Shown piece after piece: positions 1 to 7,313 of a stretch of DNA of 11,784 nt. A program made the translations under genes and the position numbers. The stretch comes from a bacterium. Lineage in GTDB: Bacteria; SM23-31; JAUVVT01. Within the stretch, counting starts at the first letter, position 1, and every line of letters starts with the position of its first letter. The stretch covers positions 1 to 11,784 of the forward strand of contig JAUVVT010000015.1 in NCBI GenBank assembly GCA_030604505.1. The letters run 5' to 3'. The notes beneath the pieces were generated by a model. It did no database searches, was not told where the DNA came from, and saw only the letters and a program-made list of their open reading frames with translations.

Positions 1-1184
1 AAGATAAATATATATTGCAATATAATACCAATGATGTTATTGAAGGATTAAAAGATGTAATAAATATAGTCGGTGCAAAAAAGGGAGTAATCGCATTAAA
101 AAGAAAATATAGAAAAATTGTAAGTTTAATAAATGATGCTGTTAAGAATGAAGAAAATATAGAAACTTTTACACTCAATGATTTTTATCCGTCAGGAGAT
201 GAACATATACTTGTCAATGAAATTACAGGACTTGTTGTTCCGGAAGGTGGAATTCCTCTTGATATTGGAATACTTGTCAATAATGTTGAAACAATATTAA
301 ATATTAGAAATGCTCTAAAGGGGAATTCCGTGACCAGAAAAACCATATCGGTTATGGGGGCTGTCAAATATCCAAAAGTAATAAACGTTCCTATTGGTAT
401 TTCTATTAACGAGGTGATTGCACTCATTGGTGGAACAACTGTTTCGGATTTTTCTGTTATAGTTGGCGGACCGATGATGGGTGAGGTTATTAATGATTTG
501 GATATTCCTATAAACAAACTTACAGCAGGAATAATTATTCTGCCTGCGGATTCGTTTCTTGTAACAAGAAGCAAAATACCATTTGAAAGGAATCTGAGAT
601 TATCGGCATCTGTATGTCTTCAATGTATTGAATGTACAGTATTGTGCCCAAGAAATCTTCTTGGTCATTCAATCAAACCGAATGAGATTATGAGGTCAAT
701 AAATTATAAAAAGATTGAACCGACAGACATCTTTACCGCATCATTCCTTTGTTCAGAATGCGGTATATGTGAAATCTACGGCTGTATAATGGGAATTTCA
801 CCAAAAATGGTTTACGTCAGAGTAAAAAAAGAATTAATTGCTCAGGGGGTGAGAAACCCTCATAATAATAAAAAACCCGTTCCTAATAAATTCATAAAAG
901 AGAGAAGAATTCCTGTCGACAGGTTGACTAACAGGCTTCGGCTTCCTCAATACGATGTGATGCCGGAATATAACGATATGGAAGTAATTGCCTCAGATGT
1001 AAAAATAAATCTGCTTCAGCATTATGGCGTTCCGGCGGAACCTGTGGTTAAGGTCGGTGACCTCGTGAAAGAAGGAGAAGTAATTGGAAAAGTTCCTGAT
1101 GATAAAATCGGTGCTTATGTTCATGCATCTATTAAAGGAACTGTTGCAAATATAAATTCTGAATATATAGAAATAAAGGCATAA
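1..1184 (+). CDS. pduS: PduS-like RnfC-family Fe-S flavoprotein (cobalamin reductase homolog), 5' partial; the ORF is open to the window edge
   Basis: There is no in-frame stop between position 3 and the TTG at 15, and the translation lacks the N-terminal GxGGAGFP nucleotide-binding segment, so about 70 residues lie upstream of the window. Strong PduS-like blocks are present: GVIALKRKYRK, FYPSGDEHIL, IGILVNNVETILNI, VTRKTISVMGAV, VPIGISINEVIALIGG, GGPMMG. There are two ferredoxin-type Cys motifs, CLQCIECTVLCPRN (CX2CX2CX3CP) and CSECGICEIYGC. The C-terminal barrel-sandwich segment VVKVGDLVKEGEVIG...YVHASIKGTV resembles the RnfC N-terminal and PduS C-terminal domain. It ends at TAA 1182-1184. 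Confidence 0.8.
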   Translation, partial: DKYILQYNTNDVIEGLKDVINIVGAKKGVIALKRKYRKIVSLINDAVKNEENIETFTLNDFYPSGDEHILVNEITGLVVPEGGIPLDIGILVNNVETILNIRNALKGNSVTRKTISVMGAVKYPKVINVPIGISINEVIALIGGTTVSDFSVIVGGPMMGEVINDLDIPINKLTAGIIILPADSFLVTRSKIPFERNLRLSASVCLQCIECTVLCPRNLLGHSIKPNEIMRSINYKKIEPTDIFTASFLCSECGICEIYGCIMGISPKMVYVRVKKELIAQGVRNPHNNKKPVPNKFIKERRIPVDRLTNRLRLPQYDVMPEYNDMEVIASDVKINLLQHYGVPAEPVVKVGDLVKEGEVIGKVPDDKIGAYVHASIKGTVANINSEYIEIKA

Positions 1185-1201: not shown

Positions 1202-1816
1202 GTGAATAATTCAAATAAAGACATTAATAATAAATCCGATAATAAGAGTAATACCTTAAGTGATTATAAGATGCCTGCAATTGCATTACTGGAATTTTCG
1301 AGTATTGCCGCAGGAGTCTCTTCTACTGATGAAATGATAAAAAAGGCAAAGATCGAAGTATTGGAATCTTCTCCAATCTGTCCCGGAAAATATCTGCTTT
1401 TGATTGCTGGAGAAGAAGGAGAAGTCGAAGCATCTTTTAAAAAGGGAAAAGAAATTTCAGATGGTTGGATTGTTGATGAACTCTTTATTCCAAATATTCA
1501 TAAACAGGTAATTCCTGCTATTAATGCTACAACTCAGATTAAAGACCTGAAAGCTATTGGGGTTATTGAAACATTTTCAGTTGCATCAGCTATAATTGCG
1601 GCTGACCAATCCGTAAAGAATGCTAATATCGATTTGATTGAAATTCGGCTTGCAAAGGGAATCGGAGGTAAAGCATTTTATACTTTTACCGGTCCTCTTG
1701 AAGAAATAGAGGCGGCAGTGGTGGCAGGTTCGGAATACCCAGAAAGTGTCGGATTAATGGTAAATAAAATCATTATTCCAAATCCAGATAAAAACATCTA
1801 TGAATTTATTTTGTGA
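1202..1816 (+). CDS. pduT: BMC-T shell protein, PduT-like, with tandem BMC (Pfam00936) domains and a conserved pore cysteine
   Basis: Two BMC domains are visible: AIALLEFSSIAAGVSSTDEMIKKAKIEVL... and AIGVIETFSVASAIIAADQSVKNANIDLIEIRLAKGIGGKAFYTF. The match to Salmonella PduT is close: SSPICPGKYLLL vs KTICPGKFLLM, IPNIHKQVIPAI vs LANIHPSVLPAI, IIPNPDK vs VIPRPHE. The Cys in ICPGKY corresponds to the PduT Cys38 that ligates a 4Fe-4S cluster. The GTG start at 1202 has a good SD (AAGGA, 6-nt spacer). An alternative ATG at 1271 (MPAIALLEF) aligns exactly with the PduT N-terminus and would remove an N/K/S-rich 23-aa extension. Confidence 0.85.
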   Translation: MNNSNKDINNKSDNKSNTLSDYKMPAIALLEFSSIAAGVSSTDEMIKKAKIEVLESSPICPGKYLLLIAGEEGEVEASFKKGKEISDGWIVDELFIPNIHKQVIPAINATTQIKDLKAIGVIETFSVASAIIAADQSVKNANIDLIEIRLAKGIGGKAFYTFTGPLEEIEAAVVAGSEYPESVGLMVNKIIIPNPDKNIYEFIL

Positions 1817-2609: not shown

Positions 2610-3395
2610 ATGCCAGAAAGAGAAGCGAGAACAGAAATGATTAAGGTTTGCAAAAGACTTTATCAAAAGGAATATGTTACTGCTTATGACGGGAATGTAT
2701 CTATAAAGCTTAGCAGTAATAGATTTCTGATGACTCCATCAGGATTCTGTAAGGGAGACCTGACAGAAAGAGATTTAATTGTTTGTGATAATGAAGGTAA
2801 AAATTTATCAGGAGCGTATGATGTAACTTCAGAAGTAGTGATGCATTTAGAGGCATTTCGACAAAGACCCGATATTAATGCTGTCGTCCACGCCCATCCG
2901 CCTCTGGCAACGGCTTTCAGTCTTGCCGGAATTTCTATTGCAAGGTGTATTCTTCCAGAGGTCATCTTTACGCTCGGTTCAATACCAACAACAGAATACG
3001 CAACACCGACCACCCCAGAAAATGCAGATGTAATAAAGGATTTGATTAAAACACATGATGCGATGATACTCGACAGGCACGGCTCGCTTACTGTTGGAAA
3101 GGATGTCTGGTCAGCATACTTTAAACTTGAAAAAATTGAGCATACTGCAAAAATTACATTTGTCGCAAGACAGCTCGGTTCAATTAAAACCCTTTCATCT
3201 GAACAATTGAAAGCGGTTGCTGTAATTGCAGAAAAATTCGGTGTGCAAAGTGTCATCCAGGATTGCTTTAATTGCGGTGCCTGCGGAAAAGAGGTATCGG
3301 AATCCTCCGATATTCAGCATTCCGATAAGAATGAAAATGTAATTGAAAATGTTTCTAATGCAATTACTAATGAAATACTTAAAACTTATGGCTGA
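2610..3395 (+). CDS. Class II aldolase/adducin-family protein (L-fuculose-1-phosphate / L-rhamnulose-1-phosphate aldolase-like) with a ~45-aa C-terminal extension, a putative BMC encapsulation peptide
   Basis: YDGNVSIK...MTPSG...E..MH...AVVHAHPPLATAF (HxH zinc ligands) is diagnostic of FucA/RhaD/AraD class II aldolases. The catalytic domain ends near residue 215. It is followed by CFNCGACG, an acidic/Ser linker, and the amphipathic ENVIENVSNAITNEILKTYG. An SD-like AGGA sits 8 nt upstream of the ATG. TGA stop. Confidence 0.8.
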   Translation: MPEREARTEMIKVCKRLYQKEYVTAYDGNVSIKLSSNRFLMTPSGFCKGDLTERDLIVCDNEGKNLSGAYDVTSEVVMHLEAFRQRPDINAVVHAHPPLATAFSLAGISIARCILPEVIFTLGSIPTTEYATPTTPENADVIKDLIKTHDAMILDRHGSLTVGKDVWSAYFKLEKIEHTAKITFVARQLGSIKTLSSEQLKAVAVIAEKFGVQSVIQDCFNCGACGKEVSESSDIQHSDKNENVIENVSNAITNEILKTYG

Positions 3396-3441
3396 TGAAA
3401 TTATTATTGAACTTTTTTAAAATTAAGATGTTTATATAATT

Positions 3442-3879
3442 ATGGAAATACTGAAAAGATACGGCTCGGTTGTTTCATTATCAGGAGGCATTGCATATGT
3501 CTTTATGAGACATGAGAATGAATGCTCCGGAGACCACAACCAGTGTCCTTTTAAGGACAGCCATGTAAATACTATAATGATGAAAGAGTTTATTATTACT
3601 GCGAATAATAAAATAAATTCAAAAATCGGGCAGTTTGTGGAAATATCGGTATCGGAAAAGAATTTAAGCCGGTTTGCATTTTTATTATTCATCTTTCCGC
3701 TGTTGATGATATCTTTAGGTGCTATGCTTGGATATTTCATATCTGATGATTTTACTTCATATAATAATTTATTTTCAGTAATCGGTGGAATTTTCGGACT
3801 TTTATTGAGTATATACATTATCAGATTAATAGAAAAAAGGTCTAAGAATTCCTTTAATATTACTAAAGTAATCGCCTAA
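3442..3879 (+). CDS. RseC/MucC-family (SoxR-reducing / sigma-E regulator C-like) small membrane Fe-S protein
   Basis: The N-terminal GSVVSLSGGIAYVFMRHENECSGDHNQCPF matches the RseC G.V.S...A.V...CS.C....C pattern. GQFVEISVSEKNL is followed by two hydrophobic helices (FAFLLFIFPLLMISLGAMLGYFI and VIGGIFGLLLSIYIIRLI), as in E. coli RseC (GQKVELGIAEGSLL..., ILGGIGGFLIA). Confidence 0.65.
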   Translation: MEILKRYGSVVSLSGGIAYVFMRHENECSGDHNQCPFKDSHVNTIMMKEFIITANNKINSKIGQFVEISVSEKNLSRFAFLLFIFPLLMISLGAMLGYFISDDFTSYNNLFSVIGGIFGLLLSIYIIRLIEKRSKNSFNITKVIA

Positions 3880-3966
3880 TAAATCTTCTTTAATTTATTT
3901 ACTTCTTTTTTTAGTCCAAAAATAGAAAAATATTATAGCAGCGAATTACACGAATTGCTTAAATGT

Positions 3967-3994
3967 TCACTGTTGGTGTTGTCACCAACGGTGA
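3967..3994 (+). terminator. Candidate rho-independent terminator hairpin downstream of the RseC-like gene
   Basis: tcactgttggtg-ttgt-caccaacggtga forms a 12-bp stem (one G.U pair) with a 4-nt loop, followed by ttaatttctcc. It sits in the 225-nt gap before the next gene. Confidence 0.35.
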
Positions 3995-4236
3995 TTAATT
4001 TCTCCAACAGAAAATAAAATTATAGATTATTAATAAACTATTTTTTATATTGTAAAAATTGTACCGCCAAAAAATTAACATTAAAAAATCAAGCTATACA
4101 AAAAATGAAATCAAAACCCGATTGTATCCCTTGTTATTTAAAGCAGGTTTTATCTGCTTCAAAAGAAGTAACTGATGATTCTTCCGAAATATGGAGGATT
4201 TGAGCAGAAACCTCAAAAATAATTCCCAACTTTTCA

Positions 4237-4965
4237 ATGGATGCATCACCTGCGGAAAATTCAACCTATTCAATTTGGAAGGCAAACGAAATATTTAACA
4301 CAAAAGATCCTTTTGAAAAAAAGAAAAAATACTACAATGAGAAAGCTCTTTCAATGTATCCGGAGTTAATAAAAATGGTCGAAGATTCTGAAGACAGCTT
4401 TGAAGCCGCAGCAAGAGTGGCTGTAATAGGAAATGTTATCGACCTCGGAATATCGACAAATATAAATATAGAAAAAGCCATAGAAGAAGTCTTTTCAAGC
4501 GGATTTTCAATAAATCACATTAATTTTCTAAAAAATGATCTGAAATCTGCAAAAATGCTATTATATCTCGGGGATAATGCCGGCGAAATAGTTTTTGATA
4601 GAATTTTTATCGAAGAAATAAAGAAGTATGGAGTAGAAGTTGTTTTTGCTGTTAAGAGTGCCCCTGTATTAAATGATGTTACGGCTGTTGATGCACATGG
4701 TACAGGTATAGATGAGATTGCAAAGGTCATTGAAACAGGTTCTCCTATGATCGGAGTGATTTTAAAAACATGTTCCGATGAATTTCTGAAATATTTTAAT
4801 GAGGCGGATATTATTATTAGTAAAGGGCAGGGAAACTTTGAAACATTGGACGAAACAGATGCAAATATTTATTTTATTCTAAAAGCAAAATGTGATGTCG
4901 TTGCTGAAAGACTTAATGTTAAAATCGGTGACGTAATGCTGATTAAGAATAAAATTCTGAAATAA
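4237..4965 (+). CDS. DUF89 / ARMT1-like metal-dependent (damage-control) phosphatase. The conserved N-terminal 32 codons (4105-4200) are in the same frame but cut off by an in-frame TGA at 4201-4203.
   Basis: GNVIDLG, LGDNAGEIVFD and SKGQGNFE are DUF89 (PF01937) signatures. Upstream, ATG 4105 encodes MKSKPDCIPCYLKQVLSASKEVTDDSSEIWRI, the family's CxxC N-terminus, then TGA, then AETSKIIPNFS and the Met at 4237, all in one frame. It is either a pseudogene or sequencing error, or a recoded or read-through stop. Confidence 0.7.
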   Translation: MDASPAENSTYSIWKANEIFNTKDPFEKKKKYYNEKALSMYPELIKMVEDSEDSFEAAARVAVIGNVIDLGISTNINIEKAIEEVFSSGFSINHINFLKNDLKSAKMLLYLGDNAGEIVFDRIFIEEIKKYGVEVVFAVKSAPVLNDVTAVDAHGTGIDEIAKVIETGSPMIGVILKTCSDEFLKYFNEADIIISKGQGNFETLDETDANIYFILKAKCDVVAERLNVKIGDVMLIKNKILK

Positions 4966-5096: not shown

Positions 5097-7313
5097 ATGT
5101 CTAAGTTTTTTACAAAACTATTATTATTCTTGGCCATATTTTATTTATCCCCGGATATTTCTCTGTCAAATGAAAAAATTTTATCTGAAATAATACACAA
5201 AGCACAACAGAATAATCGTAAAATTTTTGAAAGTATCGATAATCTAAAATACAAGGTTCATTCAAGAACATACATTTACTTTGGTTTCACACCATTTGAT
5301 GTAAATCTTGTCCCATACTTTGAAGAATATTATGCTGATGGATACTGGGAAAAGCCGGACAGCACCGCTCTTAAAATATATGCCTTAAAAGTAATTAGTG
5401 CAGGTAAGGATTCATCAAAATCTTATTCTGTTGCAACTAAAGAATTATCCCTTCCCAATCCGTTTCTGTTCGATTACAATATTCTCTCGAAAAACAAAGG
5501 TAGTGTTCATAAACGTCCTTATTACCCTTTTTCAGAAGGAGCCGAAAAATATTACAATTACGAATATGAAGGTTTTGTAAAATCAGGAATGATGGATGTA
5601 ATTTCTATTGCCGTTACACCTAAATTTTTGGATGTCCCATCAGTTGAGGGTTCATTCTTATTAGATAGAAATGATTCCTGGATAGTCGCATCCGATTTTA
5701 AGTATAATGACGCTGCAAAATTTACTTCGCAGATTAGCAAAAAAAAGAGGTCCATCAGTATAAGTATAAAAATTACGAGTGCAGAAGAACGCACTGTCCG
5801 TACAAAGAAAAGTTTATATTATTCCCCTTTCTGGCTGCCTGAACTGATGGAAGAAGACTTTTTCCTATATATCTGGGGTATGAAAGTAAAGGTTCACAGA
5901 ATAATAGAATTTGACTCCTATGTTATTAATACCCCAAATTTCAAAACTGTAAAACCGGCTAAAAGAATTGAATATTCCATTGACAGTCAGTTGCAGGATT
6001 CAATTTTAACTCAACCAGAATATCCCGACAGATTATCAAAAGAAGAAGAGGAAGAGATACTGGCTAAAATTGAGGATAAAATACGTTCGGAAGAGCTGTT
6101 TAGTGACCTGAAAGACCTCGCAAAAGTTGCAGAAAAATCGGCAATGAAAAGACTAAAGGAAAAGGGGGGCAAACTCTTTTCTTATGGGGAAAGAACATTT
6201 AACTTCTTTCAATATAACAGGGTCGAAGGTCTCTATTTTGGAAATAATTATAAATTCGCAAATCCATATATTAAAAACTTTGCTCTCTCTGTTGCAGGTG
6301 GATATGGTTTTGAAGATAAAAAATTTAAAGGAGAACTGGTCTTATTAAAATTATTTGGCAAAAAAAGAAATTTTTTTGTAGATTTAAAAATTTTTAGTAA
6401 ATTAGGTTTTGAAGAAGAAGAAAATCTAATCTCTACAGGGAAAAATACATTTACTGCTCTATTTTCTAAAGAAGATTACAGAGATTATTATGCAAAGAAG
6501 GGATTTGCTTTTGACATAAGATACAAACTCCCCGAAAGCAATATAGGAATCGGTCTTTCATTTGTTTCTCAAATTGAAAGCTCAGTTGGAAAAAATACAG
6601 ATTTCAGTATTTTCAGAAGAAATCATCCATTCAGATTAAATCCTGAAGCAGTAGAAGGAAGATATAATGGATTGGAATTTTTATTGAAATATAACACCTA
6701 TCGTATAAATGCAGAAACTTATTTTAAGTACACAAACAGAGATATGCTTAAGAGTGATTTTTCTTATTCAATATTTGGCTTTAAGCTTGGATTAAAACAT
6801 AGACTCACATATTTCAGCAGATTATTTTTTAATCTGAATAGCGGCTTTTCGTCCGGTTCCGTTGCTCCTCAGAAATGGTTTGATTTTGGGGGTAAAGTTT
6901 TTGCAAATTATAGAGGCAAATTAAGAGGAGTTGATTATAAATATTTTACCGGCGACAGAATGGTCTCCAGTGTTATTGAATATCATCTTAACGGCAGAGC
7001 ATTAAAAAAGATTGGTCTGAACAATAAATTATTTTCAGCGGTGAAATTTATTTTGTATAATGGAGTTGGATGGAGCGAACTTTCTGACAGAAGTAGAAAA
7101 CTCTTAATTAGGCCACCAAGGTTGACACCTGATGGAGTTATAATTATGGATGTCAAAGGTAGAGGTAACTTAAATGTGCCGTCATTGACTACTGATGGAG
7201 TTTATTACGAATTTGGACTGGGTATCTCTGATATATTGAATATATTCCGCTTTGATTTTATTCATAATAATATAGACAACAAGATTATCTTTGAATTCAA
7301 CTTTCTCAGATGA
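5097..7313 (+). CDS. Hypothetical secreted / outer-membrane protein, 738 aa. It has an N-terminal signal peptide, a central acidic coiled-coil segment and a beta-strand-rich C-terminal half.
   Basis: The N-terminus MSKFFTKLLLFLAIFYLSPDISLS is a signal peptide. The central segment is KEEEEEILAKIEDKIRSEELFSDLKDLAKVAEK. The C-terminal ~350 aa show alternating hydrophobic/aromatic beta-strand patterning, ending ...IIFEFNFLR. I recognise no family with confidence. Confidence 0.5.
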   Translation: MSKFFTKLLLFLAIFYLSPDISLSNEKILSEIIHKAQQNNRKIFESIDNLKYKVHSRTYIYFGFTPFDVNLVPYFEEYYADGYWEKPDSTALKIYALKVISAGKDSSKSYSVATKELSLPNPFLFDYNILSKNKGSVHKRPYYPFSEGAEKYYNYEYEGFVKSGMMDVISIAVTPKFLDVPSVEGSFLLDRNDSWIVASDFKYNDAAKFTSQISKKKRSISISIKITSAEERTVRTKKSLYYSPFWLPELMEEDFFLYIWGMKVKVHRIIEFDSYVINTPNFKTVKPAKRIEYSIDSQLQDSILTQPEYPDRLSKEEEEEILAKIEDKIRSEELFSDLKDLAKVAEKSAMKRLKEKGGKLFSYGERTFNFFQYNRVEGLYFGNNYKFANPYIKNFALSVAGGYGFEDKKFKGELVLLKLFGKKRNFFVDLKIFSKLGFEEEENLISTGKNTFTALFSKEDYRDYYAKKGFAFDIRYKLPESNIGIGLSFVSQIESSVGKNTDFSIFRRNHPFRLNPEAVEGRYNGLEFLLKYNTYRINAETYFKYTNRDMLKSDFSYSIFGFKLGLKHRLTYFSRLFFNLNSGFSSGSVAPQKWFDFGGKVFANYRGKLRGVDYKYFTGDRMVSSVIEYHLNGRALKKIGLNNKLFSAVKFILYNGVGWSELSDRSRKLLIRPPRLTPDGVIIMDVKGRGNLNVPSLTTDGVYYEFGLGISDILNIFRFDFIHNNIDNKIIFEFNFLR

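Follow-up and report, generated by a model that had tools for sequence, protein, structure and literature searches.

A divergent RseC/MucC-family membrane protein gene following the aldolase of a bacterial microcompartment locus

The window analyzed here, the whole 11,784-nt stretch of contig JAUVVT010000015.1 (assembly GCA_030604505.1, lineage SM23-31), opens with a row of genes for a bacterial microcompartment (BMC); at the end of this row, at 3442..3879 on the + strand, stands an RseC/MucC-family gene. It is an ATG-initiated open reading frame (ORF) coding for a protein of 145 aa, called RseC below, and it lies on the same strand as the shell and enzyme genes and contiguous with them, directly behind the gene of a class II aldolase. 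The original prediction had taken its product for an RseC/MucC-like membrane Fe-S protein and had proposed it as a membrane-anchored redox partner of PduS and PduT, two proteins encoded in the same row.

The family placement was examined with profile searches and it held. With PF04246 (RseC_MucC) the 145-aa product scored 80.7 bits, the gathering score being 24.4 (E-value 1.1e-22); the alignment was near full length, its residues 10-144 covering positions 1-128 of the 130 in the profile, and PF04246 was the sole Pfam family above cut-off. The equivalog model of the E. coli SoxR-reducing RseC, NCBIfam NF008115, gave 34.5 bits, below its cut-off of 184, and by this comparison the window protein is a member of the RseC/MucC family rather than an orthologue of the studied E. 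coli protein. Close homologues are five in number, with 56-100% identity, and a further orthologue with 50% identity was found on contig L014. A library of 1.8 billion proteins held 1701 representatives that match at E <= 1e-3 and just two below 1e-30, therefore the close RseC clade is small and divergent inside a large family. It is also rare: a profile search with the RseC alignment found one locus in the genome contigs (L005) and, in the metagenome contigs, the L001 contig only (L006 is the same as L001).

Could the ORF have arisen by chance, or could the overlapping antisense ORF of 128 aa (3432-3818) be the true gene? The DNA is AT-rich (34% G+C), and long ORFs, less frequent in such DNA, do arise there by chance. 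Against this stand the full-length PF04246 match, the 1701 library representatives, and the orthologues, 50-98% identical, which keep start, length and motif on at least eight independent contigs. The probability of a chance ORF is practically negligible, and the antisense ORF as a real gene was ruled out by the homology of the + strand ORF. The window gene is a genuine, divergent member of the RseC/MucC family.

The next question concerns the position of the protein relative to the membrane. Hydropathy analysis gave two hydrophobic segments, at about 74-102 and 108-131, with K73/R77 and R128/K132/R133/K135 on the cytoplasmic flanks of the hairpin and D102/D103 in a short acidic loop. This positive-inside pattern is consistent with a predicted N-in/C-in two-helix hairpin. 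An AlphaFold2 model built on 56 homologues (mean pLDDT 80.6) has its helices at 73-101 and 105-133, in agreement with the hydropathy segments and with the two transmembrane helices that had been claimed for the protein. In this model there are four N-terminal strands (4-14, 17-22, 50-55, 65-70), and a C-terminal strand (138-144) packs back onto the N-terminal OB-like beta-barrel; model and topology prediction together place this OB-like N-terminal domain on the cytoplasmic side. Foldseek searches of the PDB with the model returned nothing at E <= 0.001, and the top fold matches, themselves non-significant, were OB-fold proteins (cold-shock domains, eIF5A, the MalK regulatory domain). A sequence search of the PDB with the family profile gave no meaningful match and hence no solved relative. 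No encapsulation peptide was seen on the window protein, which in the model has no terminal helix outside the transmembrane hairpin and ends in a beta-strand. RseC is a membrane protein, and therefore any action on a BMC would be possible only from outside the shell.

The cysteine motif looks different from what had been expected. Cysteine occurs just twice in the protein, as C28 and C35, in the loop H24-ENE-C28-SGD-H32-NQ-C35-PF, that is H24-x3-C28-x3-H32-x2-C35, so that the "CS..C...C" pattern of the original prediction was a misreading; the label "Fe-S protein" is likewise carried over from the family and cannot be read from the sequence. None of the three-Cys cluster motifs sought (CX2CX5C, known from E. 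coli; C-x3-C-x2-C(-x3-C) or C-x2-C-x2-C, found in many other members) is present in the window protein, the middle position being H32. Six residues of the loop (H24, C28, H32, C35, P36 and F37) are invariant across the five homologues. In the L014 orthologue the loop reads C-PEG-C-GG-C, with Cys at the position of H32, which shows that H32 stands where relatives have Cys. Such a His/Cys exchange is the pattern expected of a metal ligand, and the loop may be regarded as a putative His-for-Cys variant of the three-Cys Fe-S site of the family, in which H24 is a possible fourth ligand.

This variant is not confined to the window. A C-x3-H-x2-C loop was found in 13 out of 154 sequences in the alignment (149 of the top 150 representatives from the library and the four other close homologues), most others having three or four Cys, and because it recurs in this way we treat it as a subfamily; no description of a His-for-Cys RseC subfamily was found in searchable papers. 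Its members in other bacteria (for example P0128-P0134, P0275, P0280, P0297) have the same loop, ACSGxHxxCP[WF], and the same architecture, and some of them are annotated as "SoxR reducing system RseC family protein". They are about 22-35% identical to the window protein and differ from it in their longer, Cys-rich C-terminal tails. They differ in gene context too, being encoded near VIT1, Thioredoxin_3/DsbD, SufBD or ars genes and not, as in the window, near BMC genes. Three distant contexts of the subfamily were inspected, and no BMC genes stood beside RseC in any of them. On L007 (1540-2850) the subfamily RseC adjoins a VIT1-like gene; on L009 (5000-8700) it adjoins a Zn-ribbon gene and lies near SufBD, thioredoxin and DsbD genes; on L011 (6000-8500; L011-L013) it adjoins Thioredoxin_3/DsbD_2 genes beside arsenic-resistance genes. 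These neighborhoods hint at a thiol-redox or metal-handling role of the subfamily rather than at a link to Rnf.

The row of genes in which the window RseC stands begins at the contig end. Here, a 5'-truncated PduS gene (1..1184, +), identified by Pfam domain matches, encodes a homologue of RnfC and NuoF with the domain order Complex1_51K, SLBB, Fer4_17 and C-terminal RnfC_N; a full-length orthologue of 439 aa is present in L001 (6160-7479). The C-terminal RnfC_N domain was considered as a novelty and rejected as such, being a published circular permutation of MNdh (PMC11626177). The next gene (1202..1816, +) codes for a PduT-like shell protein with tandem BMC domains, BMC-T(SE), matched by PF00936 in two stretches (127.3 bits). 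It scored 129.8 bits with TIGR02526 (eut_PduT), under the model cut-off of 250.3, and keeps the ICPGK motif, as read from the translation. Then follow the genes of a pair of BMC-P vertex proteins of the EutN/CcmL type (1909-2202 and 2189-2464, both +; PF03319, 83.1 and 74.0 bits). These genes overlap by 14 nt (2189-2202), as the second has its GTG start at 2189, before the first has ended. The signature enzyme, a class II aldolase, is encoded at 2610..3395 (+; PF00596, 158.8 bits). In its C-terminal tail (window 3264-3392, residues 219-261) a C219-x2-C222-x2-C225-GK motif lies between the catalytic domain and an amphipathic helix, which is likely an encapsulation peptide. The motif is conserved and reads CFNCGACGK in the window, CVECGGCGK in L002 and CQNCGGCGK in L014, where the aldolase orthologue is 69% identical to that of the window.

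In the recent reinterpretation, PduS and PduT are an NADH dehydrogenase, MNdh, and an electron-conducting shell protein, BMC-T(SE), which are proposed to export electrons together from the microcompartment and in this way to regenerate NAD+ (PMC11626177). The window contains such a module, with a PduS-type domain set beside a tandem-BMC protein of the PduT type, and its domain order is the same as in the published MNdh/BMC-T(SE), the C-terminal RnfC_N permutation included.

An AT-rich spacer of 46 nt (3396..3441, +) separates RseC from the stop codon of the aldolase. It contains blocks (TGAACTTATTTTAG ... ATGTTTAATA) common to L001, L018 and L019, the closest loci only; the spacer alignment did not extend reliably to L014 or to the loci in which RseC stands next to thyX, described below. 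In a pattern scan we detected no terminator-like hairpin between aldolase and RseC. The same scan found one behind RseC, at 3967..3994 (+), with a 12-bp stem and a loop of 4, followed by TTAATTTCTC. It lies 88 nt past the RseC stop (-19.6 kcal/mol, z = -4.5 against shuffles) and is likely the end of the RseC-containing transcription unit. Because of the 46-nt gap, the absence of a terminator within it and the strong hairpin after RseC, the gene is probably co-transcribed with the aldolase as the last cistron. Matches to sigma-70 promoters around RseC were no more frequent than background (12 matches, with 8.4 +/- 3.3 expected), the Rfam scan of 3300-4300 gave no RNA family, and the base-composition profile could not separate RseC from either neighbor block. 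In these matters the original prediction was accurate: the gap is exactly 46 nt on the same strand, the hairpin follows RseC and not the aldolase, and the domain matches agree with a PduS/PduT context in which RseC is the 3'-terminal gene of a BMC string that runs in one direction.

It is natural to ask how far the pairing of aldolase and RseC extends among close relatives; the counts that follow come from small samples and are not a census. RseC directly follows the aldolase in L001/L002, two contigs with one and the same RseC, and in L014, L018 and L019. The upstream flank of L018 ends with ...AISSEILKAYG*, the aldolase C-terminus, and that of L019 with KIYG*, the L019 spacer resembling the L001 spacer. 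Identity between L014 and the window is 63% for PduS, 69% for the aldolase and 50% for RseC. In L001, the one relative with the whole locus visible, the order is RpiR/SIS regulator, CsoS1D-like BMC-T, BMC-H, BMC-P, aldehyde dehydrogenase (AldDh), PduS, PduT, BMC-P, BMC-P, aldolase, RseC, and neither an alcohol dehydrogenase nor a phosphotransacylase is present in it. Another arrangement was found in one sister lineage of two contigs, L003/L004 and L005, where the upstream neighbor of RseC is thyX and the downstream neighbor is a gene for an ARMT1-like protein, the motif residues of RseC being intact. The thyX-linked RseC proteins are 57-58% identical to that of the window, and those of L003/L004 and L005 are 90% identical to each other. 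This is the only breakpoint seen in the clade; it falls between aldolase and RseC, and RseC remains with its downstream neighbors. The synteny expected from the earlier proposal was therefore found in part of the clade (L001/L002, L014, L018, L019) and is broken in another part by thyX (L003/L004, L005).

Just past thyX on L005 (140-1549, - strand) we found a gene of the fucose-isomerase family (PF02952), and because it lies there, sugar-catabolic genes related to the aldolase pathway are still near RseC in L005; BMC genes are absent along this 3.9-kb contig. A neighbor-joining tree (145 residues, no bootstrap) put the thyX-linked pair beside L014, within the aldolase-linked group. Since the whole region, unrelated downstream genes included, is collinear in the relatives, adjacency alone says little, and general collinearity among fairly close relatives explains much of the apparent conservation.

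Outside the clade the picture is simpler. No PF04246 gene occurs in four more distant PduS/PduT loci (L015, L016/L017, L020), whose PduS proteins are 48-52% identical and which belong to the sugar-phosphate (DeoC + RpiB) type. Together with the three distant subfamily contexts, this small sample contains no co-occurrence of RseC with BMC genes across independent lineages: adjacency inside the clade is mixed, and outside it there is none.

The gene downstream of RseC in the window encodes an ARMT1/DUF89-like damage-control phosphatase (4105..4965, +; PF01937, 218.5 bits). It starts at 4105 (MKSKPDCIPCYLKQ...), and its frame is interrupted at 4201-4203 by a TGA, a position that is occupied by Leu in the L003 orthologue. 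An orthologue with intact start follows RseC in L003 and L005. In L001 only a fused deletion remnant is left (MKSKP...SPMIGVILKTCSDEF, L001 10600-10660), and the gene is not present in L002 and L014. It appears that the ARMT1-like gene is decaying in this clade, or else that the TGA is a sequencing error. The gene is the conserved downstream neighbor of RseC and has no part in BMC function. A DUF5686 gene lies downstream of RseC in the window, L001, L002 and L014, the window and L001 versions being 73% identical.

The DNA between RseC and the ARMT1-like gene has a conserved AT-rich block of about 37 nt (window 4016-4052) with the core ATTATRGATTATTWRT (4019-4034). The core recurs in the relatives at L001 10518-10533, L003 1343-1358 and L005 3369-3384 and 3487-3502, the block in L005 being duplicated around a GC-rich hairpin. 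No further copy turned up in the window or the other loci, and the block may be a promoter or operator of the downstream gene. In L014 the 370-nt gap after RseC holds a GC-rich, highly palindromic element (…TCATTTCGACCGAAGTTCCGTCCCGCTATGCAGGACGGGACGAAGTGGAGAAATCTC…, 6780-6960), which resembles a small repeat or a mobile element and does not occur in the window.

Three known systems can be compared with the window. In E. coli RseC, both termini were mapped experimentally to the cytoplasm, with two transmembrane helices between them, and the CX2CX5C motif assembles an O2-labile [4Fe-4S] cluster (PMC11729352). The window protein shares with it the Pfam family, a similar size, a cytoplasmic N-domain with a (here putative) metal-binding loop and the two transmembrane helices, and both proteins are predicted to have a C-terminal segment packed onto the N-domain (for E. 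coli, PMC11729352). Unlike E. coli RseC, it has C-x3-H-x2-C in place of the CX2CX5C triad and a much shorter C-terminal tail, and its gene is not in an rpoE-rse operon, with no rsx/rnf or soxR genes visible on the contig. The family does work with Rnf/Rsx complexes (PMC11729352), as the earlier proposal assumed. However, the contacts reported for E. coli RseC are with RsxB and RsxD and not with RsxC (PMC11729352), which makes the premise of an RnfC-type partner weaker.

In Clostridium ljungdahlii, rseC (CLJU_c11350) lies directly upstream of rnfC, and its deletion lowered rnf transcription and abolished autotrophy, an indirect effect not being excluded by the authors (PMC9124969). Here too the product is a small PF04246 protein with two predicted transmembrane helices, encoded in one gene string with a flavo-Fe-S protein of the RnfC type. 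The difference is that in C. ljungdahlii rseC comes first and its neighbor is a complete membrane Rnf complex (rnfCDGEAB), whereas in the window the RnfC homologue is the lumenal PduS/MNdh, four genes upstream, RseC comes last, and no other rnf subunits are visible.

The third comparison concerns MNdh/BMC-T(SE) itself. Its outside acceptor is explicitly called unknown, small soluble proteins (ferredoxin, flavodoxin) being proposed, and a survey of MNdh/BMC-T(SE) loci found no specific co-occurring acceptor protein (PMC11626177). RseC in that function would differ from the published candidates in being membrane-anchored rather than soluble. Neither RseC nor PF04246 is mentioned in two BMC catalogues (full text and supplements) or in the full text of the MNdh paper, and searchable papers contained only incidental co-mentions of RseC or PF04246 with microcompartments and no link between them. 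The statement that RseC-like genes are not described as BMC components therefore agrees with the searchable literature.

If RseC belongs to a known family and stands at the end of a BMC operon, then we can ask: What does it do there? The best explanation, to which we give about an even chance, is that it is a divergent RseC-family membrane redox relay or adaptor, probably expressed from the tail gene of the BMC operon in this clade and not a dedicated BMC part. The OB-like N-domain and the short C-terminus would face the cytoplasm, and the two-helix hairpin would tether the protein at the inner membrane. By analogy with E. coli RseC, the C28/H32/C35 loop would most likely hold a labile Fe-S or other metal center at the membrane surface, and the protein would serve further redox proteins, soluble or in the membrane, as a relay or docking adaptor. 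Transcription in this clade would probably reach the gene as the last cistron, behind the BMC aldolase, their juxtaposition being a lineage-specific gene order and not a sign of a dedicated BMC role. RseC belongs to a block with the ARMT1-like and DUF5686 genes which is collinear in all relatives, and it is because RseC keeps this downstream block when the upstream neighbor changes that we favor a lineage-specific gene order. A working link to the microcompartment is possible, but RseC cannot be counted among the established BMC components. Its pairing with the operon is limited to a single narrow clade and interrupted in a sister lineage.

A number of results weigh against this explanation. 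The adjacency of aldolase and RseC was counted in five distinct related loci beyond the window, namely L001/L002, L014, L018, L019 and P0344, the last a variant 98% identical to the window protein and counted without inspection of its flanks. In the aldolase-linked loci RseC is 50-66% identical and the spacers are 46-74 nt long, and RseC is intact there while the ARMT1-like gene has decayed or been deleted. Because the tree nests the thyX pair in the aldolase-linked group, the BMC-adjacent state is probably ancestral, a weak conclusion. As L001 has no alcohol dehydrogenase, NAD+ is presumably recycled there via PduS/PduT electron export, for which an acceptor outside the shell is needed. The only gene related to rnf or rsx on any clade contig is PduS itself, in a check that covered the 11.8-kb window and 13.8 kb of the 19.7-kb contig L001, so that the family's usual partner is not in view. 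Loop residues 23-49 are the low-confidence part of the AlphaFold2 model, and for the two Cys and two His of this loop metal binding is putative.

Some of these results would suit a function of RseC as a BMC accessory. It would then be the membrane-anchored acceptor or docking site for electrons leaving via PduS (MNdh) and the Fe-S pore of PduT, and through it the regeneration of NAD+ within the shell would be coupled to a redox chain in the membrane. We consider this rather unlikely. The gene is indeed on the same strand, 46 nt after the last BMC enzyme gene, without a terminator before it and with a strong hairpin after it, and in the five loci it still adjoins the aldolase where RseC identity has fallen to 50%, although the gene behind it decays. 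But the sole rearrangement seen in the clade splits the aldolase from RseC and leaves RseC with its downstream neighbor, the collinearity reaches unrelated genes, which makes adjacency weak evidence, and RseC is found in 0/4 of the distant PduS/PduT loci, just as 0/3 of the distant subfamily members are near BMC genes. The complete L001 locus, with AldDh, MNdh and BMC-T(SE) and without alcohol dehydrogenase, could use an outside acceptor, and the physiological one is explicitly unknown; the same study, however, found no specific protein co-occurring with MNdh/BMC-T(SE) (PMC11626177). The family carries an O2-labile Fe-S cluster and works with Rnf/Rsx (PMC11729352), and rseC adjoins rnfC in C. 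ljungdahlii (PMC9124969), but E. coli RseC does not contact the RnfC homologue (PMC11729352), and electrons could not enter the membrane through a mere hairpin of two helices that lacks a cofactor site. The membrane redox partner of PduS/PduT put forward in the original prediction thus keeps its spacing and its retained adjacency as arguments, and has the breakpoint in the sister lineage and the four distant loci without RseC against it. Another possible role is regulatory: RseC as a membrane-bound redox sensor that modulates the adjacent operon without electron flux, as was proposed in C. ljungdahlii. The transcriptional effect of the rseC deletion there, the historical annotation of the family as a positive regulator of sigma E, and an O2-sensitive cluster, which would suit a sensor, are consistent with it. 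We nevertheless regard this role as very unlikely, in view of the lack of a DNA-binding domain (PF04246 is the only Pfam match and the fold is an OB-like barrel with a transmembrane hairpin), of the RpiR/SIS regulator which the L001 locus already has, of the indirect effect that the C. ljungdahlii authors could not exclude (PMC9124969) and of the same synteny evidence that speaks against a BMC accessory.

In the boldest reading, which we think unlikely, RseC of this uncultured lineage would be the missing outside partner of MNdh (PduS) and BMC-T(SE) (PduT), a shell-docking, membrane-tethered Fe-S or His/Cys-metal protein that passes electrons from the lumen to a membrane redox system. If this were true, a metabolosome without alcohol dehydrogenase would gain a respiratory-type route for NAD+ regeneration, and a microcompartment would for the first time be seen physically connected to the membrane. 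RseC at the end of the operon would in this sense be a concrete, testable candidate for the acceptor that the 2024 study left unnamed (PMC11626177). As it stands, the gene is an ordinary member of the RseC family, correctly identified, with an unusual His-containing metal loop. The RseC family itself is already known; new here are the His-containing loop and the adjacency to BMC genes in one clade, and the His-for-Cys subfamily is of modest interest for the question of what RseC proteins bind.

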